NCBI GenBank assembly: GCA_014728075.1
Contig: WJMG01000027.1
Location: 696-64,695, forward strand
Origin: Candidatus Omnitrophota bacterium
Lineage (GTDB): Bacteria; Omnitrophota; Gorgyraeia; Tantalellales; Tantalellaceae
Direction of reading: 5' to 3'
DNA length: 64,000 bases
Both the position numbers and the translations under genes were made by a program. Of this stretch, positions 2,022-39,577 are shown piece after piece. The stretch's first letter is position 1, and every line of letters starts with the position of its first letter. The notes under the pieces are model-generated. The model did no database searches. It was not told the DNA's origin and saw nothing but the letters and a program-made list of their open reading frames with translations.

Positions 2022-2106
2022 TATATCTTCAAGTCATTCTGAAATAAAGGCCGTTAAGAACGGCCTTTGATGTATATTATAGCAGAAATGTTATAATAAT
2101 TATTAT

Positions 2107-3813
2107 TTATCTTCCCGTCAAGCCGATTTCCGCGTCCACATCCGGTTGCCTGTTCGACTCCAGATACTGGACCGACCGTTCCGCGATCTTCCGGAAAGCC
2201 GGCCCCGCCACGCTGCCGCCGAAATATACGGGATGGGGGTCTTTTGCCGAGACTACTATAACGACCTCGGGATCTTCCTTGGGGGCGAACCCGATGAAAG
2301 TGGCGTAATACTTGTCCGGATAGTATCCGCCTTTCGGATCGACCATCTGCGCCGTACCGGTCTTGCCGCAGGTTTCATATAGCCGGGAATCCGCCCTCCT
2401 GCCCGTACCTTCTTTAACTACGGCCCTGAGCATGTCTTTCATTTTACTGCATGTCTCCTCACTAAGCACTTCCCTTACGACCGAGGGCCCGAAACTCCTG
2501 TGGACATTCCCGTCGAGGGTTATTATGCGGTCGACTATATAAGGACGCATGAGCCTCCCTCCGTTGGCGATAACGCTGAGGGCCGAAGCCATCTGAAGCG
2601 GCGTCACCGCTATGCCCTGCCCTATGGGTATCGTCGTTATATCGCTCCGGGACCAGGTACGCGGGTGCCTGTTTATGCCGGCAACCTCACCGGGCAGGTC
2701 TATACCCGTTTCCTCGCCGAAACCGAAAAGATCTATATAATCGTACAACCGTTCTTCCCCGAGCTTCATCGCGGCCTTTACGGTCCCGATATTGCTCGAA
2801 TTTACGATAACTTCCCGAAAGCTCAGGTCGCCGTACGCGTGATAGTCGTGAAGGACACGGCCGGCGACATTCCACTCCCCGTTCTCACAGTCGAACACCT
2901 CATCCATTGTTACCGTGCCTTCGTTAAGAACGGCACCGGCCGTTACGACCTTGAACACGCTTCCGGGCTCGAAAATACTGCTCAGACAGCTGTTCTTCAT
3001 CACTTCCTTAGGGGTAACGGAATAATCGTCAAGATCGTAATCGGGATATGAGGCCATGGCGAGTATGCGCCCCGAATAAGGTTCCATAACCACCGCGCAG
3101 GCGCCGGACGCATTATGCTTTTCGGCCATATTTTTCAGTTCCTGTTCGGTTATGTACTGTATGACGCTGTCTATGGTCAGCACCAGGTTAAGACCGTTCT
3201 TGGGTGGAACCGATTCTTCCCTGTCGTAAAGGACCGTCCTGCGCCTCGCGTCCCGGACAAGGTGACGCCATCCCGGTTCGCCCTTCAGCTCCCTGTCGTA
3301 AAAGAGCTCCAGCCCCTCAAGCCCTTTGTTATCGATATTCACGAATCCCAGGACATGTGAAGCCAGTCCGTCGCTGGAGTAATTCCTTTTGCTTTCGTCG
3401 GTAAAAAAAACCCCCTTGATGGCTTCTTTTTCCAGCGCTTCCGCTTCTTTTCTCGAGATCTTGCGCTTTATCCAGACAAAAGCGTTCTTTCTGTTCAGTT
3501 TTTCGACCAGGTCTTGCCTGTCCAGCGCAAGGATATCAGCCAGTTTACGGGCAGCCTCCTCTTTATCTTTAACGAAACGGGGATCGGAGTATACACTGGG
3601 CACTTCCAGGTTTATGGCCAAAGGTTCCAGGAACCGGTCGAAGATCGTACCCCTTCTTGGTTCGATCTTCAGGACACGGTTATGCTGATTGGCGGCCATA
3701 TCCGAAAATCTCTCGAAAGAGACGACCTGCAGGAAGAAAAGACGGCTGAGCAGACATAAAAAAAGAAAAATAAAGAAAAAAAAGATAAGATACTGGCGGT
3801 TTCTGAACATCAA
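2107..3813 (-). CDS. ftsI: Penicillin-binding protein 3 / FtsI transpeptidase
   Basis: 568 aa with an N-terminal TM helix. It has the SxxK (SVFK), SxN (SSN) and KTG (CGKTGTAQ) transpeptidase motifs and lies in the dcw cluster. Confidence 0.9.
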   Translation of the reverse strand: MMFRNRQYLIFFFFIFLFLCLLSRLFFLQVVSFERFSDMAANQHNRVLKIEPRRGTIFDRFLEPLAINLEVPSVYSDPRFVKDKEEAARKLADILALDRQDLVEKLNRKNAFVWIKRKISRKEAEALEKEAIKGVFFTDESKRNYSSDGLASHVLGFVNIDNKGLEGLELFYDRELKGEPGWRHLVRDARRRTVLYDREESVPPKNGLNLVLTIDSVIQYITEQELKNMAEKHNASGACAVVMEPYSGRILAMASYPDYDLDDYSVTPKEVMKNSCLSSIFEPGSVFKVVTAGAVLNEGTVTMDEVFDCENGEWNVAGRVLHDYHAYGDLSFREVIVNSSNIGTVKAAMKLGEERLYDYIDLFGFGEETGIDLPGEVAGINRHPRTWSRSDITTIPIGQGIAVTPLQMASALSVIANGGRLMRPYIVDRIITLDGNVHRSFGPSVVREVLSEETCSKMKDMLRAVVKEGTGRRADSRLYETCGKTGTAQMVDPKGGYYPDKYYATFIGFAPKEDPEVVIVVSAKDPHPVYFGGSVAGPAFRKIAERSVQYLESNRQPDVDAEIGLTGR

Positions 3814-3831
3814 TGCCTCTTCCGGCAGCTT

Positions 3832-4194
3832 CTAGGTCCTGGGCTTAGCCTCCGCTGTCGCGGTGAACATATCCATTACCTTTTCCACAAGACCTTCCTT
3901 TGCCGCCTTGACCGGTGTCTCTTTATGGGAAAGTATGTATCCTGTCCTGGCGCGTCCGCGCTTGACCGCGAATTTAAGGCCTTCCTTCTCAAGCACGGCC
4001 AGAAGGTAACCCGGGGATTCCAATTTGGAGAGGTCATATGAAAGGTTGGAATTCTGGTCTATCAGACGCGTCAGATGTCTGCGGTTCTCCTGCAATTCGT
4101 ATGAAGTTTTAAGTATCTCAACCCGCTGGTGGACATAAGCTGCGCATATCAGTGAAACGAACAGACTTATCGCCAGAATTCGATATAGTTTCAT
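3832..4194 (-). CDS. Cell division protein FtsL-like (small bitopic membrane protein)
   Basis: 120 aa with an N-terminal TM helix (ILAISLFVSLICAAYV) and a coiled-coil region, in the conserved position between rsmH and ftsI. Confidence 0.55.
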   Translation of the reverse strand: MKLYRILAISLFVSLICAAYVHQRVEILKTSYELQENRRHLTRLIDQNSNLSYDLSKLESPGYLLAVLEKEGLKFAVKRGRARTGYILSHKETPVKAAKEGLVEKVMDMFTATAEAKPRT

Positions 4195-5075
4195 TATAAC
4201 CTCTTCGCTGCCCTTAATTTCGAGCTTCTGGAACGCGGGTTTTCCCGGACCTCTTTCCGTCCGGGGACAACAGGTTTTTTAGTTAAAAGCTCCACTTTCC
4301 CGTCCCTGGCGGCATTCCTGAAAATATTTTTTGCTATTCTGTCCTCAAGAGAATGAAAAGATATAACGCATATTCTGCCCCCGGGCCTCAACCGGTCCGT
4401 TGCTCCCGAAAGCCCTTCTTCAACGGCATCCAGCTCATCGTTCACATAGATCCTCAGGGCCTGGAAAGTGCGTGCCGCGGGATGCAGTTTCTGCCTGGCG
4501 TATTTCCTGCCCAGAGCTTTCTCGATCACCTCACTTAGTTCTGCCGTGGAAGATATTCTTTCTTTCCTCCTGGCTTCCACGATACTTTTGGCCGCCAGTC
4601 CCGCGTGCCGTTCTTCACCGTATTCTCTTATTATCTCTTCAAGCTTCCAGCGTGAAAATGTGTTAACAGCTTCTTCCGCGCTTATGCCTCTCTCCGCGTC
4701 AAAACGCATATCAAGCGGCCCTTCCCGCAGAAAACTGAAACCCCTTGAAGGATCGTCAACCTGGTAGGATGACATACCGAGATCGAACAGCGCGCCGTCC
4801 AGCCTTTGTTCGCCGGCCTCCTCGAGTATACCTTTAATATCACGGAAATTCCTGTTCACGAAAACAACTGAATTTCCGCATGACCCCAGAGAAGACCTCA
4901 CCCTGTCGACCGCTTCGGGATCGGCGTCGACCGCTATGAGCTTCCCTCCCGGCATGATCCTCTTGAATATTTCCCCTGAATGCCCTCCTCCCCCGCATGT
5001 CCCATCCAGGATAACATCTCCCGGGGAAGGGGAAAGAAATTCCATGACTTCGTCTAGCATTACCGGAAGGTGCAA
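4194..5075 (-). CDS. rsmH: 16S rRNA (cytosine1402-N4)-methyltransferase RsmH (MraW)
   Basis: 293 aa with the MHLPVMLDEV...DGTCGGGGHS SAM-binding motif, in the dcw position after mraZ. Confidence 0.9.
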   Translation of the reverse strand: MHLPVMLDEVMEFLSPSPGDVILDGTCGGGGHSGEIFKRIMPGGKLIAVDADPEAVDRVRSSLGSCGNSVVFVNRNFRDIKGILEEAGEQRLDGALFDLGMSSYQVDDPSRGFSFLREGPLDMRFDAERGISAEEAVNTFSRWKLEEIIREYGEERHAGLAAKSIVEARRKERISSTAELSEVIEKALGRKYARQKLHPAARTFQALRIYVNDELDAVEEGLSGATDRLRPGGRICVISFHSLEDRIAKNIFRNAARDGKVELLTKKPVVPGRKEVRENPRSRSSKLRAAKRL

Positions 5076-5079
5076 TTCT

Positions 5080-5334
5080 TTAGGCCTTATTTTTGTCCCC
5101 GCGCATGAGTTTTGAAAGAGCCGATACCTGTTTCTTGTAAAGCGTACTGTAAGCGCTCCTTATATCGTTCTCATCGGGAGCGGACGCTCTCATCTGCCCG
5201 TGGCCGCCGGTGGTCCTCATCGTCCCGTAAATGGATCCGCCCATCTCACAGGCCTGAATGTGTTTTCTTTCCTTATGTTTTTTGGCATCTTCCGGCGGGG
5301 CTCCGAAATTACATCCATGTGAATATTTTTTCAT
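5080..5334 (-). CDS. Hypothetical small basic protein (84 aa) inserted between mraZ and rsmH
   Basis: ATG at 5334 is preceded by a GGAGGT Shine-Dalgarno with 5-nt spacing, and the stop lies 4 nt before the rsmH start. Sequence is MKKYSHGCNFGAPPEDAKKHKERKH...; I recognise no family. Confidence 0.4.
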   Translation of the reverse strand: MKKYSHGCNFGAPPEDAKKHKERKHIQACEMGGSIYGTMRTTGGHGQMRASAPDENDIRSAYSTLYKKQVSALSKLMRGDKNKA

Positions 5335-5384
5335 GTTTACCTCCGTTGCTGCTGCATACGCCAAAACCCCGCAGCCTTTTAAGA

Positions 5385-5576
5385 TCAGGAACAATCCTTG
5401 ATCGTCAAATATGTCTTTTTGCCGAGTCCCGAGGAAGAGACCACATACTGTTTCTCTCCGAGGTGGTCCATTCCTGAATGTAACGCCCTGGCCCTTTTAA
5501 CCCTTTCGACCATATTGACGCAATTAACGAACTCTACCTGCTTCTTGTGAAATTTTACGGCTATCTTTCTATACAT
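5385..5576 (-). CDS. Hypothetical small protein (63 aa) inserted between mraZ and rsmH
   Basis: Internal ATG at 5576 is preceded by GGGGGGTGG. Sequence is MYRKIAVKFHKKQVEF...; no family recognised. The ORF track's longer 74-aa version lacks an RBS. Confidence 0.35.
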   Translation of the reverse strand: MYRKIAVKFHKKQVEFVNCVNMVERVKRARALHSGMDHLGEKQYVVSSSGLGKKTYLTIKDCS

Positions 5577-5605
5577 GACCACCCCCCCTGTTTCGGGAAC
5601 TAATA

Positions 5606-6043
5606 TCAAAATTCTATTATGTTCTCGGCAATATCCTCAAAATTGTCCTTCGAAGCCGCGTAGAATTCGTCCCATTTTTCTTTGGACCATATCTCTATAC
5701 GGTTCGAGACCCCTATTATCACTATCTCTTTTTTCAGACCCGCGTAATCTTTAAGGTAATCGGGAACGAGCACCCGCCACTGTTTATCCGGCTCTACTTT
5801 TACAGCCCCTGAAAAAAAGAGCCTGTTGAACTTCCTGGAATCTTTTTTGGTAAAAGGCATCGACTTGAACTTGTTCTCCTGCTGTTTCCATTCGGCCTCC
5901 GTGAACATGAAAAGGCATTGGTCAAGTCCGCGGGTCACCGTAAAGCGCTCTATACCCAGCTCCCGTATCGTATCCCGGAACTTTGAGGGGATTATTACAC
6001 GGTTCTTTTTATCGATAGAATGTATGTACTCTCCGTAAAACAT
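5606..6043 (-). CDS. mraZ: Transcriptional regulator MraZ
   Basis: 145 aa, starting [23 protein letters not shown] with a duplicated DxxxR-type MraZ/AbrB-like fold signature. It is the first gene of the dcw cluster, and MraZ boxes lie in its leader. Confidence 0.9.
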
Positions 6044-6067
6044 CCTGTGCTTCGCCTTTTATTTTTC

Positions 6068-6093
6068 TCCACTTTCCTCCACTTTGCTCCACA
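6068..6093 (-). promoter_or_regulatory. Putative MraZ operator: three direct GTGGAG repeats at exact 10-bp phasing in the mraZ leader
   Basis: Plus strand has CTCCAC at 6068, 6078 and 6088, which reads GTGGAG-N4-GTGGAG-N4-GTGGAG on the coding strand, between the predicted TSS and the mraZ ATG. This matches the known MraZ box architecture (GTGG[GT] direct repeats with a 10-bp period). Confidence 0.6.
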
Positions 6094-6104
6094 TTACACT
6101 TAAA

Positions 6105-6133
6105 AGTATACACTTATAGTGCGGCATTGTCAA
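6105..6133 (-). promoter_or_regulatory. sigma70-type promoter of the dcw operon (Pmra)
   Basis: On the coding strand, TTGACA is followed by a 17-nt spacer and TATACT, i.e. a consensus -35 with a near-consensus -10. It sits about 60 nt upstream of the mraZ ATG. Confidence 0.6.
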
Positions 6134-6152
6134 CAAATATATAGGAAAATTA

Positions 6153-6216
6153 CAGGTGTCGGGTATCAGGTTTCGCGTAACTTGTCCTTTCCCTGACACC
6201 TGATACCCGAGACCTG
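6153..6216. repeat. 19-bp inverted repeat (caggtgtcgggtatcaggt / acctgatacccgagacctg) with 26-bp spacer
   Basis: Near-perfect inverted repeat with one mismatch, seen directly in the sequence. It lies immediately upstream of the mraZ -35 and downstream of the PilZ-gene terminator. Confidence 0.5.
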
Positions 6217-6223
6217 ATCCATA

Positions 6224-6258
6224 CAAAAAAAACCCGGGACAAAATCCCGGGTTTTTGG
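6224..6258 (-). terminator. Rho-independent terminator (bidirectional hairpin) after the PilZ gene
   Basis: An A-run is followed by CCCGGG, a 7-nt loop, CCCGGG and a T-run. Confidence 0.65.
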
Positions 6259-6281
6259 GTATATACTCTTATATTTAGGTT

Positions 6282-6743
6282 CTACCAGTAGAGCTTTTCG
6301 AAGCGTTCCGAATAACGCTTTATCCATTCTCTAGAAGCGTCCTGGAGAGTCATTTCCCTGCCCAGTTGAAGAGACCGGAGAACGCGGTACTCTTCTATAA
6401 GGTATATTTGTTCGATGAGCTTGACCTTGAAAGCATCGGAATAGGTCACAAAAGCCACTCCGACATTATACAGGCCCGTGGCATCATCTTTCTCAACATG
6501 CATTACCTTAGACCTGATCTTGAAGATCTTATTATACAAAGGCATCTGGAGGTTTATCAGGGAACCGACGGGGACATCCCTGGCAGACCTGAACATAAGC
6601 CCGCCTTCGGAGACATTCACCGTATTTGTCTTCTCGAAATCTGTCTCATCCGCTATCTGGAATTCAAGAGGACTTACCAGAAGATGGCGTAAGAATTTTC
6701 GTTTTTCCTGGCCCTTTCCGTTCATTTCAGCCGGCATGTTCAC
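6282..6743 (-). CDS. PilZ domain protein (c-di-GMP receptor)
   Basis: 153 aa with an RxxxR motif (RKFLRH) and a D/NxSxGG motif (NVSEGG), both typical of PilZ. Confidence 0.7.
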   Translation of the reverse strand: MNMPAEMNGKGQEKRKFLRHLLVSPLEFQIADETDFEKTNTVNVSEGGLMFRSARDVPVGSLINLQMPLYNKIFKIRSKVMHVEKDDATGLYNVGVAFVTYSDAFKVKLIEQIYLIEEYRVLRSLQLGREMTLQDASREWIKRYSERFEKLYW

Positions 6744-6826
6744 CTAACCTTCCTTGTCGTACATAGCGCGCTACCGCCGAAAAGGTTCTTCAGAGGATAA
6801 CTGTTCTCTCGGGTATCGGCGCTTAG

Positions 6827-7060
6827 TTAAAGCATATTGCTCTCTGAAAGCTCTTTTTCAAGCTTCTGAACGGCTTCTTTTAACTTGGAAAAGAGTTTAA
6901 CATTGATATTGATACCCTTTCCCGTGGGAACCTTCTCGTCGCCCTGCGGCGGCTGGGTCCAGATCCGGATATCAATAACATCATTGCCCTGGAATTCAGA
7001 GATACGCACCTTTACATCCTGATATTTGTTTTTCTCGAATACGTATACATCTTTTTCCAT
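6827..7060 (-). CDS. PC4/YdbC-like ssDNA-binding transcriptional coactivator family protein
   Basis: 77 aa; the IDIRIW...GKGI pattern resembles the bacterial PC4-like (PF02229) fold. Assigned from memory only. Confidence 0.45.
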   Translation of the reverse strand: MEKDVYVFEKNKYQDVKVRISEFQGNDVIDIRIWTQPPQGDEKVPTGKGININVKLFSKLKEAVQKLEKELSESNML

Positions 7061-7204
7061 CGGAACCTCCTTTATATGCCTTATGCTCCAGGAGTTTTAT
7101 TATAACTATATTATAATAGTATTATATACTTAATATTATACGAAAATCACGCAAAATGCAAAAAAATAGAATTATTTTTTCCACGCCCGCGGGGATAGAC
7201 CCGT

Positions 7205-7309
7205 CTAGTCGATCTCTTTTTTCGAAAATATCTTCTTGAAACAGAAAACGACAAGAGCCAGTATCAGTGTCCACGAAACCGTAATGAATACCCACCCCAT
7301 TATGCTCAT
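7205..7309 (-). CDS. 34-aa single-TM micro-protein translationally coupled to the NSS transporter (MetS-like accessory subunit)
   Basis: Its ATG overlaps the transporter TGA stop in an ATGA arrangement. The sequence MSIMGWVFITVSWTLILALVVFCFKKIFSKKEID is one hydrophobic helix plus a basic tail. Confidence 0.45.
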   Translation of the reverse strand: MSIMGWVFITVSWTLILALVVFCFKKIFSKKEID

Positions 7310-8868
7310 AACGGCTTTCCTTTCACTTTTCTTTTCTTCCAGGCAATTTTTACCAGCACCGCGAGAACGAGGAAAATTATCCAAAGCCCGGTTCTCGTAG
7401 CTATGATATGGTTCCTGTCGGCCTCGGGAACATTCTCCATGCAGATTATAGGCAGCCATTCCTGAAAGAACCACGCCGCCAGCACCGCCATCAGAAAAAG
7501 CGGTGTAATATATTTAATGATATACTTGTAAATGACCGGTATTTTCATGTCAGCCCCGTGATGTGTCTCTTCCCAGGCCTTGTTAATGCCGAAAACCCAG
7601 CCGAAAAGTATGACCTCGACCGTAGCGAACAACACCAGGCAGAAAGTCCCTCCCCAGAAATCGAGCTCGTCAACCACACCCTTTCCGAGAAAAAAAATAG
7701 CCCCGTGGCAAAGAAAAAAAGTGACCGTGCCGAAAATGGCTACGGCCCTGGACCTGGATATGTCGAACTCGTCCTCCAGAAAAGCGATAGCCGGCTGCGA
7801 AAGGGAGACCGACGAGGTCACTCCGGCCAGAAAAAGAAGAGCGAACCAGAGAAACCCCAGGAACTCGGACCAGGGCATCCGGCTGAAGATAAGGGGCATG
7901 GTCACGAACCCCAGGTTGAAAGCTCCCGAGTCCGCCACCTGCCCGATCATCATAGGACCGAAAAAAACGAAAGCGGCGGGGATCACGAGGCTGCTCCCGA
8001 TCACTACCTCGGCCGTCTCGTTCATACTAACCGCGGTAAGCCCCGAGAGGGTCACATCATCAGCTTTTTTCAAATAACTCGCGTAAGTAAGAATAACGCC
8101 GATACCCACGCTCAAAGTGAAAAATATCTGTCCTGTAGCGGCAAGCCATACCCCGGCGTTCTTCAATTCCGAAAAATCGGGATTCCACAGATACCCCAGG
8201 CCATTGACCACATTCCATTCAGGTCTGGAAGGGTCCGGCGCCCCCAGCGAAAGGACCCTTACGGCCAGAATAATACCGAAAAAAAGAAGCGTGGGAAGAG
8301 CTACTTTACAGAACTTTTCGATCCCCCCTTTTATACCGTTCTTGAGAACGAACATATTCACGGCGAATGTCACGATGAAAAAAAGGTAGGCCGGGCGTAT
8401 ACTGGAAAAGAACTCGTTCCTCTCCAGCCCCTGAAACCCCCGTAGAAAAGACTGCATCACGGCCTGGTCCGTTATGGAAGAATACTTGCCCGTAATCGAA
8501 AAGAAGCTGTAAGCCAGTGTCCACGATTCTATATAGGTATAATAGATCATTATTACCAGCGGCCCGAAAATGCCTATGACCCCGAAATACTTTATAAACC
8601 GGTTCTTCTCCCAGAGACTGTGAAAAACACCCGGAGCGGATGAATGCTCGAACCCCCCTCCGTAACGGCCGATCGACCATTCAACCCACATAAGGGGAAT
8701 GCCCACCAGGAGAAGGGCAACAAAATACGGTATCATGAAAGCTCCCCCGCCGTTCTTGACGGCCTGCACGGGGAACCTGAGAAAATTCCCGAGGCCTACG
8801 GCCGAACCGGCCACCGCCATGATTATTCCAAGCCGTGACCCCCATGACTCTCTCATCTTTTTGCCCAT
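7306..8868 (-). CDS. Sodium:neurotransmitter symporter family (NSS/SNF) transporter
   Basis: It has the GLGNFLRFP and GGGAFMIPY NSS motifs and is polytopic. Start chosen at MGKKMRE (ATG 8868), which has an AGGAAG/GGGA RBS; the track's upstream ATG has none. Confidence 0.85.
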   Translation of the reverse strand: MGKKMRESWGSRLGIIMAVAGSAVGLGNFLRFPVQAVKNGGGAFMIPYFVALLLVGIPLMWVEWSIGRYGGGFEHSSAPGVFHSLWEKNRFIKYFGVIGIFGPLVIMIYYTYIESWTLAYSFFSITGKYSSITDQAVMQSFLRGFQGLERNEFFSSIRPAYLFFIVTFAVNMFVLKNGIKGGIEKFCKVALPTLLFFGIILAVRVLSLGAPDPSRPEWNVVNGLGYLWNPDFSELKNAGVWLAATGQIFFTLSVGIGVILTYASYLKKADDVTLSGLTAVSMNETAEVVIGSSLVIPAAFVFFGPMMIGQVADSGAFNLGFVTMPLIFSRMPWSEFLGFLWFALLFLAGVTSSVSLSQPAIAFLEDEFDISRSRAVAIFGTVTFFLCHGAIFFLGKGVVDELDFWGGTFCLVLFATVEVILFGWVFGINKAWEETHHGADMKIPVIYKYIIKYITPLFLMAVLAAWFFQEWLPIICMENVPEADRNHIIATRTGLWIIFLVLAVLVKIAWKKRKVKGKPL

Positions 8869-8983
8869 TTCCCTATCACCTGCTTCCTGCAAATTTTACA
8901 CGAAGAACGCTCCGTTCCTCCGGGTTGCCCCGCAAACTCCTTTTATTATTTATATTATATAATCAGTGGCCGTTTTTTCAACA

Positions 8984-9020
8984 AAGAAAAGGCCGGAGAG
9001 CGATCGCTCTCCGGCCTTCT
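8984..9020 (-). terminator. Rho-independent terminator downstream of the GH130 gene
   Basis: Hairpin GGCCGGAGAG-cgatcg-CTCTCCGGCC, followed by a T-run on the minus strand. Confidence 0.6.
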
Positions 9021-9052
9021 ATCTTTAACCGTACCCTCCGGAAGTCCGGTAA

Positions 9053-10000
9053 CTACCGGTTAAAGCACGCGTCGACAAGGTCGTCTATAGTCGAGGTCGC
9101 GAGGCATTGCACCGTATCGGCGCCGCCGTAATATATCTTCACTTCACCGTTATCCTCAGCCACCGCTCCACAGGTAAAAACAACATCATAGGTGAGCCCC
9201 CAGATCTCGTAATCGGTCGTGGGAGAGAGAATGGGAGCTTTTGCTCTTGCGACTATTCTGGAAGGATCGTTAAGATCAAGCAGCATTACTCCGAGGTGGT
9301 ACACATACTGGGCCGCGCACTGCACATTTACCGCGTGATAAATGACAAGCCACCCTTTATCTGTTCTTATGGGAACCGCTCCGGGGCCGTTCTTTTTCCA
9401 CCCCCATTCGTCCTGGCTTTGAGCCACGGCTCTGGATTGACCCCAGTGTATAAGGTCGGGGGAATAGGAAAGCCACATATACCCCTGTCCGTCACCCGTA
9501 TTAGGCCTGTCGAGGCGGCAATAAAGGCCGTTTATCTTTTCCGGGAAAAGCACTCCGTTACGGTTATCGGTCTCGGATATGAAATCCCTGAACTTGAACT
9601 CTTTCATGTCCGGGGATTCAAGGAGGCCGAGCCTGCAGGAATGCCCGCTATGGCACGCGAAAACCACATAATATTTGCCTTCCAGGAGAGTTACTCTGGG
9701 ATCGTAGTACATGCCTGTCGTATATTCCTTGAAATAATCGGTATCCGGCATCTTAATGGGCTCTTTTCTCATCTTGAAGTCTATACCGTTATCCGAGTCA
9801 GCGGGCCAGATGAACTGTTTCATCGAAGGTGTCTCCACCCTGCAGAGCATTACATATTTGCCTTCTTTGGTCTTTACGCATCCGGAATTATATACTCCTT
9901 TTGCCGCCGCGGGAACATCATCCTTTGTGAGTATGGGGTTCCCGGAATACCTCTGCACTATGTTCTCTTTTGTCTTTGGATATACTATAGGCTGTGACAT
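9053..10000 (-). CDS. Glycoside hydrolase family 130 (beta-mannoside phosphorylase-like, DUF377)
   Basis: 315 aa with five-bladed propeller-type motifs. I recognise it as GH130/PF04041 from the overall pattern (GxxYYGGAD, WGxSxxD). Confidence 0.8.
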   Translation of the reverse strand: MSQPIVYPKTKENIVQRYSGNPILTKDDVPAAAKGVYNSGCVKTKEGKYVMLCRVETPSMKQFIWPADSDNGIDFKMRKEPIKMPDTDYFKEYTTGMYYDPRVTLLEGKYYVVFACHSGHSCRLGLLESPDMKEFKFRDFISETDNRNGVLFPEKINGLYCRLDRPNTGDGQGYMWLSYSPDLIHWGQSRAVAQSQDEWGWKKNGPGAVPIRTDKGWLVIYHAVNVQCAAQYVYHLGVMLLDLNDPSRIVARAKAPILSPTTDYEIWGLTYDVVFTCGAVAEDNGEVKIYYGGADTVQCLATSTIDDLVDACFNR

Positions 10001-10092
10001 GTTACTCCTCTTTTTGAATTTTTAAAAATACCACCGAGCTTCCCGTGAGATGTATTTAACTATAATTCATACTGAAATTCAAGGATTTTTTA

Positions 10093-10127
10093 TAAAAAGC
10101 CCCGGGCTGTAGGGCCCGGGGCTTTTA
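10093..10127 (-). terminator. Bidirectional rho-independent terminator
   Basis: AAAAA is followed by GCCCCGGGC, loop tgtag(g), GCCCGGGGC and TTTT. Confidence 0.65.
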
Positions 10128-10146: not shown

Positions 10147-11190
10147 TCAGAACTCGATAACGGAATCGACGGTCCCGAAAATATTCTGTTCCCTTTTGGG
10201 GTTCTCCGGGTCGTAGGTCCAGTTATCGTCAACAAGGAATTTGTAACGGTACTTCCCTCTTTTAAGGTTAAAATGAGCGGACCAGGTGCCGTTCTCGAGC
10301 TTATTAAGGCGATTAGCCTCTGTCTTTTCCCATCCGTTAAAATCCCCGAGCACATAAACTTTGCCTGCCTTGGGGGCGTGCAGCATGAACTCTTTCATAA
10401 GTATATCGTGGCGGATCTTTTCGGCGGTAAGAAGCTCGCTGGTCATGTTGTAGAAATCAAGAGCCGAGGAACACTTGGGATCGTATTCGAAAATAGTCTT
10501 TCCGTTCTTAGCGGCTTCCTTTATCCTCACGCTCCCGCGTATCCTGGTCTCGAGAAGGTAGGGGCCGAGCTTATTCTTAGCGTCCGTCTCAAGCTGCCTG
10601 GCGAACCTCGTCCTCTGGTCGTATATGTTCAAAACAAAGAAAACCCCGGGCCGTCTTCCCGTCTCTTCCTCCAGCAGACCCGTAACCCTGTAAAGGCTGT
10701 TTATCCCGTTGAACGAAAAATAGCTCAGGTCCATGGGGACTATTATAGTATCGGCTGAATACATGGCGTTCAGCGTAAGGAAACCGAAACTGGGAGGAGA
10801 ATCTATTATCACATATTCGTACTGGTCGAAAAAAGGATCTTTAAGTGTATTCGACAATATAGCTGCCGCCCCGTTCATGCCCCCCAGGTTGATCTCGGCC
10901 GCGCTGAGCATCATGTTCGCGGGAATAAAGTGTAAAAGTTCTCTGTCGTTTATGACCAGTTCTTCGGTCGGGAACTGTATGTTATCAAAATGGGAACGGA
11001 ATATATCATAGGATGTACGCCGTTCGGAGGATCTCTCTGTATAGCCCATCGCGTAGGTAGCGTGAGCCTGCGGGTCCATATCTATAAGAAGCGTTTTGCT
11101 GCCCAGTCTCGAAAGCGCTGCGGCCATATTGACGGCAACGGTCGTCTTTCCGCAACCGCCTTTTTGGTTCGCGACAGATATTATCCTCAT
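10147..11190 (-). CDS. ParA/MinD-family P-loop ATPase fused to a C-terminal CBM48 / AMPK-beta glycogen-binding domain
   Basis: The N-terminus has the deviant Walker A KGGCGKTT and the ParA Walker B-like IIDSPP (PF01656/CbiA type). The last ~80 aa (GKVYVLGDFNGWEKT...YRYKFLVDDNWTYDPENPK...GTVDSVIEF) align residue-for-residue with the AMPK beta GBD (VYLSGSFNNW...YKFFVDGQWTHDPSEP...GTVNNIIQV). Confidence 0.8.
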   Translation of the reverse strand: MRIISVANQKGGCGKTTVAVNMAAALSRLGSKTLLIDMDPQAHATYAMGYTERSSERRTSYDIFRSHFDNIQFPTEELVINDRELLHFIPANMMLSAAEINLGGMNGAAAILSNTLKDPFFDQYEYVIIDSPPSFGFLTLNAMYSADTIIVPMDLSYFSFNGINSLYRVTGLLEEETGRRPGVFFVLNIYDQRTRFARQLETDAKNKLGPYLLETRIRGSVRIKEAAKNGKTIFEYDPKCSSALDFYNMTSELLTAEKIRHDILMKEFMLHAPKAGKVYVLGDFNGWEKTEANRLNKLENGTWSAHFNLKRGKYRYKFLVDDNWTYDPENPKREQNIFGTVDSVIEF

Positions 11191-11540
11191 TTTCCCTCCC
11201 CATACATTTTGTGGTATATACTCAAGAAAACAGCATATTTAGTGTTATTTTGATAAAAGTATAACACATGAATGTATATATGTAAACAGTAAAATAACTT
11301 AGATCCGGGGTCAGGGACGACGCTGAACGGGGGTTCTCTCTCTCAAAGGCTAAACGGTACTGCTGGCGGGGGCATCCTGCCCTTGAAAGCCGTATCTTAT
11401 TTTCTCTTCTTCCGCAACCGGGCTCTGAAAGGGCGCGCCCTGTTGCGTGCAGCCTTATGAAAATTTTGCCTATACTTTTGAACCGAAATTGTGTATGATA
11501 ATAATCATATTTTTAGCAACCGACCCTTCGTATAGTTGAG

Positions 11541-12401
11541 ATGATCCCTGAGAACATGCTTAATCAGAAAAAAGAGCGCGACGATATCGACGCGGAACTC
11601 TCGCGGACCTATTTCGGGCCGAGGCCTCATGCCCGCCCCCCGAAGAAGCCGGAAGTTTCACGGGCAAAAAAAATTGCACTTTTCTTCTCGGTCCTTATCA
11701 TCCTGGCCGCGGCGGGGACCTTTCTGTTCGTTATCGCCCGGAACAATGTCTCTTTCACTCTCAATGTGAACCTTGGAGAAACCCCGGAAGATACCGCGGG
11801 CGCGTCAATGTCATCCCCTTCCGGCATGGAATCTTCACTGCTTTACGGTTTCGAACAGAACGATAACAACTGGGAGATCCCGGCATGGGCCACCGTTAAA
11901 ACCGACCATGTCGCAAGCGGTCTCAAGAGAACGGACGAAACGGCAAGCCAGGGGCGCGGTTCTCTAGAGGTTTCAGCGGAAATGCCCTTCCGAAGATGGG
12001 CAGGCGCCCTGGTGGAAATACAGCAGTATCTCGACCTCTCCGGCTACGATCGCCTGGCGGCCGACATTTATCTTCCTCCTGAAGCACCTCCGGGGATGAA
12101 AGGCAAAATGATCCTTACTGTGGGAGAAGACTGGCGGTTCGTGGAGATGTCCTGGGGAAAGAAACTCGCACCCGGAAAATGGACCACCATAGAGGCCGAT
12201 ATTTCGGATTCCTCGCGGGACTGGAAACGCACGGTCGTGGACAGCGCTTTCCGCTCAGACATAAGAAAAATATCCCTCCGCGTCGAATCGGACAACAACC
12301 CCGCCTGGTCGGGAAAGATCTATTTCGACAATGTCAGGGTATTGAAGCCGGTTGTTGCCGAGGAAGAAAACCTCTCCGAAACAACTCCAGAAACGGATTA
12401 G
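11541..12401 (+). CDS. Bitopic membrane protein with C-terminal beta-sandwich (CBM-like) domain
   Basis: 286 aa with one TM helix (IALFFSVLIILAAAGTFLFVIA). The C-terminal GKIYFDNVRV is typical of CBM beta-sandwich endings. It is divergent from the ParA-CBM48 gene. Confidence 0.45.
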   Translation: MIPENMLNQKKERDDIDAELSRTYFGPRPHARPPKKPEVSRAKKIALFFSVLIILAAAGTFLFVIARNNVSFTLNVNLGETPEDTAGASMSSPSGMESSLLYGFEQNDNNWEIPAWATVKTDHVASGLKRTDETASQGRGSLEVSAEMPFRRWAGALVEIQQYLDLSGYDRLAADIYLPPEAPPGMKGKMILTVGEDWRFVEMSWGKKLAPGKWTTIEADISDSSRDWKRTVVDSAFRSDIRKISLRVESDNNPAWSGKIYFDNVRVLKPVVAEEENLSETTPETD

Positions 12402-14103: not shown

Positions 14104-17100
14104 CTACCCCCAGCATATATTATCGTATTCACATCTCGCGCATCTCTCCCGGCCGTCCCTCTCCGGGAGCTTTTCAAAGCGCAGATCCCGTATTTTATCC
14201 CAGCATTCGCTTATTACCTTAAGCAGATCATCGACCATACCGTCGGTCAGTTCCACCGATTCGTCGCGGTACACGCCTTTTTCCAGGCCGTATTTTTTCA
14301 CCGTATCGCTCGCGGGTTCCAGGAACTGCAGAACACCTTTTGCGACCTTTTTCCCCGCGCCCCCCCCGCTCCGCTCATAAAGCATCTTGTAAGCGATAAG
14401 CTGGCGGTAATAATCGTCGCATTTGTAGCTTGAAAGGTCCCTGCAGTTGGCAATAGCCTTGATGTGTTTGTCGGGTTTCCCTGTCTTGTAGTCTACGACC
14501 CTGATACTGTCGGATGTTTCTTTTTCTATCTTATCGAAAGTGCCTCGGAAGATCAGACCGTCCGGGAGAGGGACCTCAAGTTTATTCTCCAGATCGATCG
14601 GCATGACGGGGTCCCGGGCCTGAAGAAGATACCAGTCCTCGACCTGTTCCAGTTTAGTAACACACCACTTGTTCACGGGGTCGCTGCCCCCCTGATACTG
14701 GAGCTCGTCAAGAAAAGAAGCCCTGAAATCGCTGAAAGCCGGGAACGGCCTGCCCTCCATGTAAATGGAATAGACCTCCTCCAGGGCCTTGTGCGCGCAG
14801 TTGCCGAATATCAGGTGCTGGTTCTTCCTTCCGGGAAGTTTAAGCACATTATCGTAAAGGAATTTCCTGCCGCATTCTATGTAGTTATTAAGGCTGGTAG
14901 GATTAAGCGTAAGGTTTGCGACCAGGTCCTTCAGGATACCGTCCGTATCCTGAAAGGGGTCTTCTTTCCTGGTACCCGCAAGAAAAACCCTGAGAAATGA
15001 TTCCTCGTCCTCGGGAGAACCGGGGACCGGATCTAAGGGCATCCCGTCGAAAAACCTGCTCGTTACGGATTTTTCTCCCGGGGTCGAGGTATAGACCAGG
15101 TTGGCCTTAGCCCTTGTGGAGGCAACATAAAAAAGTCTCAGTTCGTCGTAAAGCTCAAGTTCTTTCATCTTTTTCTTTTCTTCGATCTTTTCCTTACTCT
15201 TGTTTATTTCGGAAGGTATCCTTATGACTTCCCCTTTTCTTCGCACCGGCCAGCTCTTTCTTTCAAGGCAAAAAGGAAGGAAGACCGTATAGAATTCAAG
15301 ACCTTTCGAGGAATGAGCGGTATAGACCCTGACCCCGTCCTGGCTGAAAGTCGCCATTTCACCTTTTACCGGCATGGCGTGTGTTTCCCTCAGCTCCATC
15401 TCCTTCATGAATTCCCCGAGCCTGATCCCCGGACGCGCTATATCCGCCTGCTTTATCATATTGACGAAAGATACCAGAGCCCTGAGATCCCTTACTTTAA
15501 GGACTTTGTCATCAGAGTATTTTTCCAGTATGAACCTGTAAAGCCCGGAATCGTTTATATACCTGAGAAGAAGATCATGTACAGGGATCTGTCCGGAACC
15601 GGAAATAAGGCGGTCTATCACCCACGCCGCCCGGCGCATGGAATAAGGGTCTTTAAGACCCATCGACAGGACCTCCGGCGGAAGATCGTTTCCGTCTTCG
15701 CGCGGCATGACGGGGTCCCGGTCACCGTCCCTTTCGAAGCGTCCGAAGTGTTCCATGAACTTCTGATAAAGGTTGATCGACCTGTACTTATCTCCTCCTT
15801 CCCGTCTGGCGGAACTCTTCGCGGAATTAACGAACGAAATGAATTTGAGCAGGTCCGAGTGCTCGACCGAAAGGTAATCCGATATCAGCACCCTGTAAAG
15901 GGCCAGGGATTTCCCCTCCATATCCGGGACCGGATTACCGGCCAGCTCGAGCACATCCAGCATCTGGCGTACGCGTTTTTCGTTCCGTATATCTTCCCGG
16001 CCGTCGGTAGCGTAAGGGATACCCGCCTTCAGGAAAGCGTCTACCACTTTCAGTATATGAGACCTTTTTCTCACGAGGACCGCTATATTGTTCAAAGGCT
16101 TGGACCTTTCCTCTTCCGTAAGGCCCGGGTCTTTCCGTATGTTCTCGGCCTGAGACTTTATCTCCTCCACCAAAAAGGCCAATTCTTCCTCTTCGGTCAT
16201 GAACTCCCTTAGCTCTATCTTGCCGGAAGAGTAATCTTGCCGGGGATCCAGCTCCTTGGCCTCGATCCTCTCTTCCCGCGGTATTTGTGAGATTATCCCT
16301 GATGAAGCCTTGATGATCCCCCCGGTCGACCTGTAATTATCCCTCAGGGTTATGGTCTCGATGGAGGGCAGCCTCTCTTTAAGCACGCGAAAATTGGAAA
16401 GCGTTGCGCCCTGGAACCTGTATATGGCCTGGTCGTCGTCACCCACACAGCAGAGATTGGGCCGGCCCGCGTCCATTATGGAAAAAAGGAGTTCCAGCTG
16501 AGCGCCGTTAGTATCCTGGTATTCATCGACCATTATGTACCTGTACTGCTCTTTAAGCGCTCCCCTGAGGCCGTCCTCCCGGGCCAGAGCGTCAAGGGCT
16601 ACCAGTATCATGTCATCGTAGTCTATCCTGCCTCTTTCATCGAAAACACCGCTTTCCCCGGTCTGTTTGATGTTCTCGTACCCTTCGTAAATAAGCGAGA
16701 GCTCCTTGAGACGGCGGAGATGTTTTTCCTCGAAACTAACGCCGTCCGGTTCAAGCCGGGAAACCGAATCCTTTAGTTCCCCGGGGGTTATACCCTCGTT
16801 CTTCAGTTCACTTATCTTTTTCTCTATTTCAGATCGGTGTATGTACGGCGCCCCGAAAGGCCTCAACCCGTTTATGCCTTCCAGATTATCTATAAGATGC
16901 TCTATGGCCCGCACCTTTTCTATCTCGCTTATTTCGATCTTATCTTTTACATATTCGACGGCCCATTCGGATTCAAGGACGATCGAATTCGCGAAACTGT
17001 GGAAAGTCTCTATTTCGGCATTATAGCCGTCATGGCCTATAAGGCTAACCAGCCTGTCGCGCATGGCCCGCGCTCCGGCGTTCGTAAAGGTGAGTATGAG

Positions 17101-17337
17101 TATATTCGAAGGGGAAATGCCGCGTTTCCGTAAAATGTTCGCGGCGCGTATCGAAAGAAGCTGGGTTTTCCCGGTCCCGGGACCCGCGAGCACGAGAAGC
17201 GGCCCCTCGGTCCTGTCAACGGCCTGTTTCTGGAATTTATTGAGCTTTTTGTAATGGTCTTCGTAAGACGCCATAGGTAATTTCAGCGATCCGGTCTCCC
17301 GGGTTAAATGCGACAAAGGACCGCGGACTCCGGACAC
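14104..17337 (-). CDS. UvrD/PcrA-family SF1 helicase fused to C-terminal PD-(D/E)xK nuclease with Cas4/AddB-like Cys cluster
   Basis: 1077 aa. The N-terminus carries Walker A (AGPGTGKTQ). The C-terminus has DYKTGKP and a terminal RCARCEYDNICW, indicating a RecB-like nuclease with a probable Fe-S cluster. Confidence 0.8.
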   Translation of the reverse strand: MSGVRGPLSHLTRETGSLKLPMASYEDHYKKLNKFQKQAVDRTEGPLLVLAGPGTGKTQLLSIRAANILRKRGISPSNILILTFTNAGARAMRDRLVSLIGHDGYNAEIETFHSFANSIVLESEWAVEYVKDKIEISEIEKVRAIEHLIDNLEGINGLRPFGAPYIHRSEIEKKISELKNEGITPGELKDSVSRLEPDGVSFEEKHLRRLKELSLIYEGYENIKQTGESGVFDERGRIDYDDMILVALDALAREDGLRGALKEQYRYIMVDEYQDTNGAQLELLFSIMDAGRPNLCCVGDDDQAIYRFQGATLSNFRVLKERLPSIETITLRDNYRSTGGIIKASSGIISQIPREERIEAKELDPRQDYSSGKIELREFMTEEEELAFLVEEIKSQAENIRKDPGLTEEERSKPLNNIAVLVRKRSHILKVVDAFLKAGIPYATDGREDIRNEKRVRQMLDVLELAGNPVPDMEGKSLALYRVLISDYLSVEHSDLLKFISFVNSAKSSARREGGDKYRSINLYQKFMEHFGRFERDGDRDPVMPREDGNDLPPEVLSMGLKDPYSMRRAAWVIDRLISGSGQIPVHDLLLRYINDSGLYRFILEKYSDDKVLKVRDLRALVSFVNMIKQADIARPGIRLGEFMKEMELRETHAMPVKGEMATFSQDGVRVYTAHSSKGLEFYTVFLPFCLERKSWPVRRKGEVIRIPSEINKSKEKIEEKKKMKELELYDELRLFYVASTRAKANLVYTSTPGEKSVTSRFFDGMPLDPVPGSPEDEESFLRVFLAGTRKEDPFQDTDGILKDLVANLTLNPTSLNNYIECGRKFLYDNVLKLPGRKNQHLIFGNCAHKALEEVYSIYMEGRPFPAFSDFRASFLDELQYQGGSDPVNKWCVTKLEQVEDWYLLQARDPVMPIDLENKLEVPLPDGLIFRGTFDKIEKETSDSIRVVDYKTGKPDKHIKAIANCRDLSSYKCDDYYRQLIAYKMLYERSGGGAGKKVAKGVLQFLEPASDTVKKYGLEKGVYRDESVELTDGMVDDLLKVISECWDKIRDLRFEKLPERDGRERCARCEYDNICWG

Positions 17338-39230: not shown

Positions 39231-39259
39231 ACTGTCGTATCTTACCTCAATACTTACAT

Positions 39260-39287
39260 ATTTTAGTATTATTAATAATAAAGTCAA
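39260..39287 (-). promoter_or_regulatory. sigma70-type promoter
   Basis: TTGACT, a 16-nt spacer and TAAAAT on the coding strand, immediately downstream of repeat element copy 1. Confidence 0.5.
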
Positions 39288-39300
39288 TATATTCTTAAAT

Positions 39301-39558: not shown

Positions 39559-39577
39559 TGGTTCACTTTAACGGAAC

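Follow-up and report, generated by a model that had tools for sequence, protein, structure and literature searches.

In bacteria, ParA/MinD ATPases are the general means of placing large objects, for example chromosomes, plasmids, carboxysomes, chemoreceptor arrays, and division sites. In McdA/McdB, which acts on carboxysomes, and in PpfA-TlpT and ParC-ParP, an orphan ParA is found together with an adjacent partner that is small and fast-evolving. In the classical ParA systems, the activator of the ATPase is on the cargo and not on the ATPase itself. Concerning storage polymers, PhaM and PhaF tether PHB granules to the nucleoid for their inheritance by the daughter cells. Regarding glycogen, which is the commonest carbon store, we know of essentially no account of its placement and inheritance in bacteria.

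The window analysed here is a stretch of 64 kb from a MAG of Candidatus Omnitrophota, a group of ultra-small and possibly predatory cells. A first-pass annotation had proposed that one of its genes encodes a ParA ATPase fused to a CBM48 domain, and this was confirmed by Pfam matches above thresholds, by the match in fold, and by the presence of residues equivalent to those of AMPK beta1; all its coordinates were also correct. The fusion is not a one-off: it belongs to a large unnamed family spread over about ten phylum-level labels, with thousands of environmental members, and it invariably has a dedicated partner gene as its neighbour. A literature search on ParA with CBM48, glycogen, or AMPK1_CBM gave nothing relevant and no paper describing the fusion, and no published example was found of a P-loop positioning ATPase combined with CBM48. 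Together with its conserved partner, this protein is a good, although unproven, candidate system for organising storage-sugar granules in cells. In the following sections, residue conservation was counted over 77 family members and gene neighbourhoods over 78 loci.

The ATPase half of the fusion protein

The fusion gene (positions 10147-11190, minus strand) was taken from the list of open reading frames and encodes 347 amino acids plus the stop codon, with the Pfam models AAA_31, CbiA, AMPK1_CBM, and CBM_48 all above their cutoffs. The identical database entry is named 'AAA family ATPase [Candidatus Omnitrophica bacterium]'. The Soj/ParA-type ATPase domain occupies residues 1-256 (10423-11190, minus strand; AAA_31, E = 1.7e-45; CbiA, E = 1e-17) and has the fold of the ParA/MinD (SIMIBI) family. 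Its nearest matches in both sequence and structure are the chromosomal Soj/ParA proteins (1wcv/2bek, 6iub, 8ray). The two motifs that the first-pass annotation had pointed out were read correctly from the sequence, namely the deviant Walker A KGGCGKTT (residues 10-17; 11140-11163, minus strand), with the signature Lys10 and the P-loop Lys15, and the Walker B YVIIDSPP (residues 126-133; 10792-10815, minus strand). Both lysines are present in 77/77 members, a count to be read knowing that the Walker A motif was itself among the search patterns that gathered the family. The Walker A' catalytic aspartates D37 and D39 and the Walker B D130 are invariant in the family alignment (77/77), D39 being the equivalent of HpSoj D41, and the Walker B prolines are kept in 77/77 (P133) and 74/77 (P132). 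The core thus resembles Soj, with every catalytic ATPase motif intact.

The residues that bind DNA in TtSoj are R182, R194, R208, and R211 (PMC6393308). At these positions the fusion presents R193, which is found in all 77 members, a residue 205 that is K or R in 59/77, and a residue 222 that is K or R in 62/77; the fourth position is the non-basic G219, to which R218 is adjacent. The comparison with the R189/K201/R215/R218 patch of BsSoj gave the same picture, with R193, K205, and R222 basic and largely conserved. Hence, judging from the alignments, most of the Soj DNA-binding patch appears to be kept. The equivalent of the HpParA Phe52 contact gave no support, since Tyr50 of the fusion is mostly Ile or Val in the family.

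A promoter-like site, TTTACA-17-TATACT with an extended TG, was located 5' of the gene by consensus scan (11258-11286, minus strand), a match in sequence that says nothing about function. The 64-kb window holds no other ParA/MinD-like or CBM48 open reading frame. An anti-phage defence system was also considered and ruled out, as no PADLOC model matched the fusion, the window partner, or one Desulfobacterota partner.

The C-terminal CBM48 domain

In the AlphaFold model (pLDDT 81.8), the ParA core is followed by an all-beta domain with pLDDT values of 86-94, and this C-terminal beta-sandwich superposes on solved CBM48 structures. The two domains are joined by a short linker, and its length ranges from 15 to 82 amino acids across the family, which fits what would be expected of a tether. 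The domain, delimited by Pfam, alignment, and the model, covers residues 263-347 (10150-10404, minus strand). AMPK1_CBM (PF16561) matches residues 275-345 with 50.2 bits against a cutoff of 26.8 (E = 3e-13) and CBM_48 (PF02922) scores 31.1 bits against 22.4. The resemblance to AMPK beta noted in the first-pass annotation was reproduced when residues 257-347 were used as the sole query, which matched the AMPK beta1 CBM structures 4yef, 1z0m, and 1z0n (E = 2e-9).

In AMPK beta1, mutation of W100, K126, W133, or G147 abolishes or reduces glycogen binding (PMC6274970). These residues align with W287, K317, W324, and G339 of the fusion. W287, W324, and G339 are conserved in 77/77 members and position 317 is K or R in 71/77. 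By this alignment, the C-terminal domain is a CBM48 in which the glycogen-contact residues are retained. Proteins with a signal peptide and tandem CBM repeats are the nearest relatives of the module and have the W/K/W residues as well; the three residues should therefore be taken as a family-wide signature and not as proof of the ligand.

The partner proteins

The divergent gene next to the fusion (11541-12401, plus strand) encodes a protein of 286 amino acids. Its homologues, adjacency, and structural model describe it as bitopic in the membrane, with a CBM-fold domain outside the cytoplasm; the bitopic nature and a CBM-like beta-sandwich had been anticipated. It has 125 homologues, and those with a name are all 'hypothetical proteins' of Omnitrophota. 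The family adjoins the fusion in 42/78 loci, in three subfamilies with three different gene contexts, and is a genuine conserved partner. Its transmembrane helix is placed by the structural model at residues 41-67 (11661-11741, plus strand) and, since the N-terminal tail is basic, the positive-inside rule suggests that the N-terminus faces the cytoplasm. The CBM-fold beta-sandwich covers residues 96-270 (11826-12350, plus strand), most of which have a pLDDT above 90. The best Foldseek match of the sandwich was the CBM of the mannanase 1wky (E = 1e-9), then CBM27, CBM11, CBM28, and CBM22, with E values from 1e-9 to 1e-7 for the mannanase/CBM27-type folds; Mann_GBD_bact from Pfam reached 25 bits, just below its cutoff of 27. 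The consensus scan also gave a promoter-like site 5' of this gene (11478-11505, plus strand).

The cytoplasmic N-terminus of the partner carries a conserved helix, D-x-I-D-x-E-L-S-R-T-Y-F (residues 14-25; 11580-11615, plus strand), delimited by alignment and model. I16, L20, and F25 are invariant, D14, E19, T23, and Y24 are conserved in at least 90% of the sequences, and the structural model places the helix at residues 15-25. From adjacency and conservation, we infer that it is a candidate peptide for contact with the ParA.

Outside Omnitrophota, the sampled partners are small, soluble, Cys-rich proteins without a Pfam family. In at least 18 loci that are not of the Omnitrophota membrane-partner type, the product of the +1 gene begins with K-LGRGLE[DE]IS-x-[FL]FLS, and the same LGRGL peptide was found at the start of the +1 gene in two more loci fetched later. 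In a Desulfobacterota member the peptide is MEKKSLGRGFEEISNIFLS. LGRG is the ParA-binding element in the N-termini of ParB proteins (PMC11229316). None of the open reading frames of the 64-kb window has an N-terminus of this type.

A single N-terminal motif common to the membrane and LGRGL partners was considered and rejected. A regular expression for such a motif, written post hoc, matched 54/152 adjacent genes and 13/968 others; a cross-validated PSSM trained on the LGRGL class alone did not single out the membrane partners (p = 0.13), and a PSSM for the core 6-7-mer was marginal on them (p about 0.015), with its top matches within transmembrane segments. The helix and the LGRGL peptide are treated here as two separate conserved peptides.

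Gene neighbourhood

On the other side of the fusion lies a GH130 glycoside phosphorylase (9053-10000, minus strand; Pfam, E = 1.4e-50) with its own RBS. Right after the stop codon of the fusion there is an intrinsic terminator (10088-10126, minus strand) with a 13-bp GC-rich stem and a U-run, which the consensus terminator scan missed and which was found from the sequence and the RNA fold. GH130 adjoins the fusion in three of the seven distinct loci of the clade (the window, L001, and L005; L002, whose protein is identical to that of L001, was not counted separately), in L004, L007, and L087 RF-1/Smr genes are found instead, and L006 was assigned to neither class. L087 is Tantalella, whose fusion is 74% identical. 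Because of the terminator between them and the replacement in close relatives, GH130 is probably an incidental neighbour outside the module, and it was discarded as a functional partner. Thus, the first-pass annotation was right in placing GH130 behind a terminator, but the bracketing of the fusion by this gene is not conserved.

Other lineages have alpha-glucan genes (GH57, GH77, and glycogen phosphorylase) on the flanks of the fusion, in three arrangements independent of one another. GH57 is within the fetched flank in 23/78 loci and, in 20 loci of the main Omnitrophota group, it is directly 5' of the partner and the fusion. In L009 the fusion abuts GH77 (E = 2e-177), GH57 with DUF3536, a GT35 phosphorylase (1100 bits), and a GT4 gene, and in L064 DUF4912 and GH57 are found 2.6-4.7 kb downstream of the fusion. 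In the clade of the window no alpha-glucan gene is near the fusion, glgA/B/C/P are absent from the 64-kb window, and the Desulfobacterota contexts are unrelated to glycogen. Most Ace Lake Omnitrophota, Tantalella among them, are predicted to synthesise glycogen, and Ca. Aadella gelida is listed with trehalose synthesis only and no glycogen synthesis (PMC8542988). The MAG of Ca. Aadella gelida, which is 91% complete, carries the fusion. The fusion did not prove to be a generic ParA variant unlinked to polysaccharide metabolism, an outcome that had been named as fatal to the initial proposal and that is excluded only in part.

The main Omnitrophota group also presents an AlgE-type outer-membrane porin (PF13372) and a lipoprotein just upstream. 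In the window, the porin, a PHP gene, and a DUF4870 gene are together at 38.8-42 kb without the trio of GH57, partner, and fusion; therefore their adjacency is probably backbone synteny and the three were set aside as members of the system. Within the clade of the window, synteny extends over more than 20 kb, starting with GH113 and GreA and reaching as far as the dcw cluster, and the order fusion ... PC4 - PilZ - MraZ - RsmH - FtsI - MurE is kept in the window, L001, L004-L007, and L087.

Proposed mechanism

The reading that we favour, with a probability of roughly 45%, is that the fusion is a ParA switched by ATP which attaches directly to glycogen in the cytoplasm and, with its partner, organises it spatially. 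The CBM48 that the ParA/MinD-class switch carries on its flexible linker would bind this cytoplasmic alpha-glucan. ATP would promote a sandwich dimer that binds the nucleoid by its basic patch and displays two CBM48 modules, which could give an avid and ATP-dependent attachment to glycogen particles. The N-terminal peptide of the partner would then trigger ATP hydrolysis and the release of the ATPase. In Omnitrophota this role would correspond to the inner-membrane protein with its outward-facing CBM-fold domain, and in other phyla to the small protein with the ParB-type LGRGL start. As a result, glycogen particles may be tethered, distributed or partitioned, or fixed relative to the membrane partner. 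In classical systems it is on the cargo that the activator is found. A cargo-binding domain fused to the ATPase is suggestive of tethering and not of a canonical Brownian ratchet. This arrangement gives no account of the partner's own 'cargo'.

The positioning or segregation of granules, as the first-pass annotation had it, is what membership in the ParA family would suggest, and its interpretation as a whole is partly supported. A bolder version is doubtful: glycogen would be the third 'surface' of ParA/MinD proteins after DNA and membrane, and this widespread two-gene system, with its cognate partner, would be the first dedicated machine for positioning or partitioning polysaccharide granules in bacteria, and in Omnitrophota would also link the internal store physically with a glycan-binding membrane protein that faces outwards.

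The family offers a concrete and testable handle on the placement of glycogen: the ligand of its domain can be predicted, its partner is small and conserved, and its members number in the thousands. A cargo-binding module on the ATPase would be an unusual design and would inform models of ParA systems, and in Omnitrophota the membrane partner may be a sign that external glycans and internal storage are connected.

Alternative explanations

It is unlikely that the CBM48-like domain is a protein-protein or structural Ig-like module, holding for instance a partner or client, which binds no sugar, and that the orphan ParA has a non-glycan cargo. The CBM of AMPK makes protein contacts too, and the same subtype of domain is found in many secreted tandem-repeat proteins with putative ligand binding. 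There is also a match to the NCBIfam model NF052315, 'type IX secretion system plug protein', although it is below threshold (30.8 vs 100 bits), and many lineages lack glycogen genes nearby. Against this, the two stacking Trp and the K/R are kept in the cytoplasmic fusions over a very wide phylogenetic range, at the frequencies given above, and the alpha-glucan enzymes recur beside the fusion in the three arrangements. Very unlikely indeed is that the fusion is simply the chromosome-partitioning ParA (Soj) of the organism with a decorative extra domain. The best matches, the largely conserved arginines of the putative DNA-binding patch, and the database names 'chromosome partitioning protein' go in this direction; nevertheless, none of the roughly 85 loci checked has a recognisable adjacent parB, the sampled partners have no ParB Pfam domain, and the neighbour of the fusion is either the membrane protein with its CBM fold or a small protein rich in Cys. 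Neither does the window contain a start of the LGRGL type. Moreover, the family is also present on Mb-scale contigs from Desulfobacterota and other phyla, where a canonical parAB is expected as well.

Two further possibilities were weighed. The ATPase could, like BcsQ, localise or gate a membrane complex that exports, imports, or senses polysaccharide, with the membrane partner and its periplasmic CBM as the business end. The outward-facing CBM fold of the partner, the AlgE-type porin and lipoprotein just 5' in the main Omnitrophota group, and the PilZ gene conserved nearby in the clade of the window are consistent with it. We consider it rather improbable, as the porin cluster looks like backbone synteny, no synthase or glycosyltransferase is consistently present, the partners outside Omnitrophota are small and soluble, and a cytoplasmic alpha-glucan module would be left unexplained. 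Alternatively, CBM48 could report the glycogen or oligosaccharide status to a MipZ/MinD-like ATPase that controls another process. In the clade of the window, where the fusion closely precedes mraZ and the dcw cluster, cell division or cell-wall synthesis would be candidates. In AMPK, this module confers glycogen responsiveness on the kinase (PMC6274970), the Pfam MipZ model scores 46 bits on the fusion against a cutoff of 20.7, and the order of the fusion with MraZ, RsmH, FtsI, and MurE is kept throughout the clade. However, such adjacency may be merely inherited within the long syntenic block, it appears in no other lineage among the loci examined, and the fusion gene ends in a terminator, so a sensor of this kind seems quite improbable.

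Comparison with known systems

The fusion shares the signature-lysine Walker A with the chromosomal Soj/ParA of ParABS from T. thermophilus (1wcv/2bek) and H. pylori (6iub) and with 8ray, three of the four positions of the basic patch appear to be kept, and its non-Omnitrophota partners begin with a peptide of the ParB-type LGRG. It differs from them in the C-terminal CBM48 and in having, instead of an adjacent ParB domain protein, a membrane CBM-fold or small Cys-rich partner. The resemblance to McdA/McdB, PpfA-TlpT, and ParC-ParP lies in the orphan ParA and in a non-DNA cytoplasmic cargo presumably spread over the nucleoid. In those systems it is the adaptor that recognises the cargo, whereas in the fusion the ATPase itself bears the presumed module for cargo binding, and there is a separate partner besides.

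MinD is likewise an ATP switch, and its C-terminal membrane-targeting helix, which binds its surface in the dimer only, stands where the fusion has CBM48. By this parallel, ATP-driven dimerisation would give a bivalent and switchable grip on glycogen. On the other hand, a glycan-binding domain replaces the amphipathic helix at the C-terminus of the fusion, MinC/MinE were not seen in its context, and the MinD model TIGR01968 reaches 52 bits against a cutoff of 213. BcsQ also belongs to the ParA/MinD family, but it is tied to the membrane machinery of cellulose secretion and has no CBM; its model TIGR03371 gives 63 bits on the fusion against a cutoff of 158, and no bcs genes occur in any neighbourhood examined.

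As for the module itself, the fusion passes the Pfam thresholds and keeps the equivalents of W100, K126, W133, and G147 like the CBM48 of AMPK beta/SIP2, the glucan phosphatases of the SEX4/LSF1 and laforin types, GlgB, and pullulanases, with the difference that it is placed on a P-loop ATPase and not on a kinase scaffold, a phosphatase, or a glycoside hydrolase. Finally, PhaM/PhaF share the concept, the attachment of storage granules to the nucleoid, although they are unrelated proteins that work without an ATPase cycle and on another polymer.

Domain architecture and fold

The open reading frame at 10147..11190 (minus strand) encodes a 347-aa protein in which a ParA-type ATPase precedes a CBM48, the AMPK-beta-type glycogen-binding module. 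This architecture had been proposed by the first-pass annotation at the same coordinates, and Pfam, the structure matches and the AlphaFold model all bore it out. The deviant Walker A motif KGGCGKTT (residues 10-17), Asp37/Asp39 and the Walker B motif YVIIDSPP (residues 126-133) can be read directly from the protein. Pfam assigned residues 1-233 to AAA_31 (E 1.7e-45) and CbiA, and both CBM models scored above their cutoffs, AMPK1_CBM on residues 275-345 (50.2 bits, cutoff 26.8) and CBM_48 on residues 268-324 (31.1 bits, cutoff 22.4). None of the NCBIfam models exceeded its own cutoff, the best being ParA_partition (110 bits vs 180).

When searched alone, the last 91 residues matched CBM structures of rat and human AMPK beta1 (E 2e-9), with the same alignment to AMPK beta that had been drawn by eye. 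The nearest matches of the ATPase half were ParA 8ray and Thermus thermophilus Soj (E 1e-34 to 2e-35). The AlphaFold model, obtained from a 17-sequence alignment (pLDDT 81.8, pTM 0.72), presents a ParA core, a short linker (15 to 82 aa in the family) and the all-beta C-terminal domain anticipated earlier (pLDDT 86-94); Foldseek related it to Soj/ParA structures with TMt of 0.84-0.87. The catalytic motifs are intact, the fold is Soj-like and the DNA-binding patch, which in TtSoj comprises R182/R194/R208/R211 (PMC6393308), is retained in part: R193 is conserved in 77/77 family proteins, the K205 position is K/R in 59/77, one position is G219, adjoining R218, and the R222 position is K/R in 62/77.

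Regarding sugar contacts, glycogen binding by AMPK beta1 is abolished by W100G or K126Q and reduced by W133L or G147R (PMC6274970). In the alignment to the AMPK beta1 CBM structures, W100, K126, W133 and G147 correspond to W287, K317, W324 and G339 of the fusion. Conservation was assessed in 77 family proteins from species-representative genomes, collected with search patterns that did not include these four residues: W287, W324 and G339 are invariant, and position 317 is K or R in 71 proteins. Searched exhaustively, the CBM part matched 7,097 representative proteins, the best-scoring of which have a signal peptide followed by this domain in 3-18 tandem copies, with the same contact residues. 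Since these secreted relatives keep them, W/K/W marks the CBM domain family and does not prove the ligand of the fusion. The secreted class (P0363-P0510, e.g. P0372, P0375, P0378 and P0454) is very large; an abundant subclass has four copies in about 480 aa, and in one case the protein is fused to a probable outer-membrane barrel.

Distribution of the fusion family

The database record of the identical protein, from a Candidatus Omnitrophica MAG, reads 'AAA family ATPase', and the architecture recurs in about 100 clusters at 58-77% identity, among them Ca. Tantalella remota, Ca. Aadella gelida and Ca. Omnitrophus magneticus. A scan over one genome per GTDB species matched at least 600 stretches, at least 593 of which encode relatives. 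Of the best 80, almost all span query residues from about 1 to 345 and therefore include the CBM; their record titles cover Omnitrophota, Planctomycetota lineages, Krumholzibacteriota, Desulfobacterota/Thermodesulfobacteriota, Margulisiibacteriota, Auribacter, Gemmatimonadales, Eisenbacteria, Bacteriovoracaceae and UASB14. With a Desulfobacteraceae member as query, 7,897 matches were obtained at E <= 1e-30, and the best 120 are all full-length fusions, none named beyond generic terms. No description of a ParA-CBM48 protein was found in the literature.

Partner genes

The first-pass annotation had pointed to a divergent bitopic membrane protein (11541..12401, plus strand) with a CBM-like C-terminal beta-sandwich. 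This was confirmed by the structural model and its matches to CBM folds, and the protein is more important than was supposed: when the neighbours of 78 loci were clustered, a bitopic membrane protein adjoined the fusion in 42. Three subfamilies, whose profiles match each other only, were distinguished: c0 (position -1, same strand, 190 aa, 29 loci), c9 (position -1, 266 aa, 7 loci) and the divergent c10 of the window (6 loci). Bitopic membrane proteins also occupy -1 in five loci of the 40%-identity tier. The window partner has 125 homologues, all named ones being Omnitrophota 'hypothetical protein' entries. Its model (pLDDT 81.8) shows an N-terminal helix (15-25), a transmembrane helix (41-67), a disordered spacer and a beta-sandwich (96-270, pLDDT above 90 over most of the domain), which matches a mannanase-appended CBM (E 1e-9), then CBM27, CBM11, CBM28 and CBM22. 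Apart from the sandwich, the N-terminal helix is the most conserved region, with I16, L20 and F25 invariant, and the positive-inside rule predicts it to be cytoplasmic. Next to partner and fusion, a 746-kb Omnitrophota contig (L001) carries two giant genes (1-2481 and 3561-9809, plus strand; more than 2012 aa and 2082 aa) with no Pfam matches, one of them between the partner and fusion genes.

Outside Omnitrophota, the +1 same-strand gene begins K-LGRGLE[DE]IS-x-[FL]FLS in at least 18 loci, and two Desulfobacterota loci fetched later show the same LGRGL opening (MEKKSLGRGFEEISNIFLS and MPNKSLGRGLDQISEMFLS) in genes that start 10-13 nt past the fusion stop codon. Beyond the N-terminus these partners are diverse (small Cys-rich, degenerate CbiA-like, an AAA_22, a RodZ-like protein) and most lack a Pfam family. 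ParB N-termini bind ParA through their LGRG element; in H. pylori ParB (1-MAKNKVLGRG-10), where Leu7 and Arg9 are conserved, the R9A substitution eliminates binding (PMC11229316). Because the adjoining partners open with this ParB-type element, there is good evidence that the ATPase half acts as a normal partner-regulated ParA. A regular-expression idea that the Omnitrophota N-tail motif equals the LGRGL peptide was dropped, being unsupported by cross-validated tests. In small Desulfobacterota-type partners (L085 11094-11654, L086 11085-11585, and +1 of L049 and L037) a Cys-rich CxxC...C...C segment, possibly a zinc ribbon, follows the peptide; they have no Pfam or PADLOC family.

Genomic context

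A strong intrinsic terminator (about 10126-10088, minus strand; 13-bp GC-rich stem and U-run) lies directly 3' of the fusion gene, so that the GH130 glycoside phosphorylase gene (9053..10000, minus strand) does stand behind a terminator, as had been stated. Given this terminator, the RBS of GH130's own and promoter-like sites 5' of both the fusion and the divergent membrane gene, the fusion gene looks monocistronic. Its clade (the window, L001, L004-L007 and Tantalella L087) shares the order GH113, GreA, Zincin, membrane gene, fusion, SNF, PC4, PilZ, MraZ and dcw cluster. The slot 3' of the fusion varies, holding GH130 in the window, L001 and L005, and RF-1 + Smr in L004, L007 and L087; GH130, earlier taken as part of the fusion's context, is therefore probably incidental.

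The dcw cluster begins with mraZ, 4 kb downstream of the fusion gene; its start covers 573-6043 (minus strand: MraZ, RsmH, a small 120-aa ORF, FtsI-type PBP, Mur ligase). Stand-alone PilZ (6282-6743) and PC4/p15-like ssDNA-binding (6827-7060) genes, both on the minus strand, are kept between the fusion gene and mraZ in all clade members examined (L001, L004-L007, L087). Conserved upstream of the fusion/partner module across the clade is a gene for a 1077-aa UvrD-type helicase fused to a PD-(D/E)XK nuclease (AddA/AddB-like; 14104-17337, minus strand). A c-di-GMP-I riboswitch (RF01051, 23938-24027, plus strand; 70.6 bits vs gathering score 35) directly precedes two tandem GH113 (beta-mannanase family) genes (24122-25222 and 25462-26568, plus strand), and Tantalella has a GH113 gene at the same relative position. 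At 46668-48308 (minus strand), a gene near a sugar ABC transporter (49094-52953) encodes a six-hairpin glycosidase-like protein of 546 aa, in which weak GH100/GDE_C/MGH1 matches are unusually combined with a PTS-HPr domain match near the C-terminus (residues 409-482). An 891-aa ORF without Pfam family is found at 61281-63956 (minus strand).

Concerning alpha-glucan genes, the main Omnitrophota group presents the order AlgE-type porin, GH57 (PF03065, E 8e-63), partner, fusion, small TM protein, Lys-rich protein and DUF134. In L009, a convergent cluster of GH77 4-alpha-glucanotransferase (E 2e-177), GH57+DUF3536, GT35 phosphorylase (1100 bits) and a GT4 gene abuts the fusion, and L064 has DUF4912 and a GH57 resembling branching enzymes 2.6-4.7 kb downstream of it. 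GH57 is inside the fetched flank in 23/78 loci; as most of these share one synteny block, three independent arrangements are counted. In most other Omnitrophota, the porin and the DUF4870 homologue are separated by an inserted GH57/partner/ParA-CBM48 trio. The window keeps the DUF4870 small membrane protein, AlgE-type (Alginate_exp) outer-membrane porin and PHP-like genes contiguous (38841-42059, minus strand) without the trio, which suggests that the trio is a mobile unit and porin, PHP and DUF4870 the backbone. The Lys-rich protein (c1; L012-L055 and others, e.g. L019 11514-11936) is a 140-aa product at +1/+2 in 26 loci; its N-terminal half is histone-H1-like and extremely rich in lysine, and its C-terminal half is a small beta-barrel related to the window's Peptidase_U32 product; a DUF134 HTH gene often follows.

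Possible role of the fusion

The link to glycogen sensed in the first-pass annotation holds up on the conserved contact residues and the three alpha-glucan arrangements. Counted against it are the absence of glg genes from the 64-kb window, the Desulfobacterota loci examined, whose contexts bear no relation to glycogen, and Ca. Aadella, whose 91%-complete MAG has the fusion but was credited with the synthesis of trehalose only and not of glycogen. A role in tethering, distributing or partitioning glycogen by an ATP-switched dimer is given slightly less than an even chance (about 0.45). Most of the remainder is shared by four alternatives: the fusion could be a sensor or regulator, an organiser of envelope glycans or a plain chromosomal ParA, or its CBM48 could be an Ig-like domain that does not bind sugar.

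Under the glycogen reading, the protein would, as an ATP dimer, attach to the nucleoid and display two CBM48 modules, giving an avid, nucleotide-dependent grip on glycogen particles; the N-terminal peptide of the partner would then trigger hydrolysis and release, and glycogen would thereby be tethered, distributed or partitioned. The fusion itself is real and widespread, and it represents an undescribed variant within a known type of system. Its CBM occupies the position of the membrane-targeting helix of MinD and so, by analogy, the same 'bivalent only when dimeric' logic is suggested for it.
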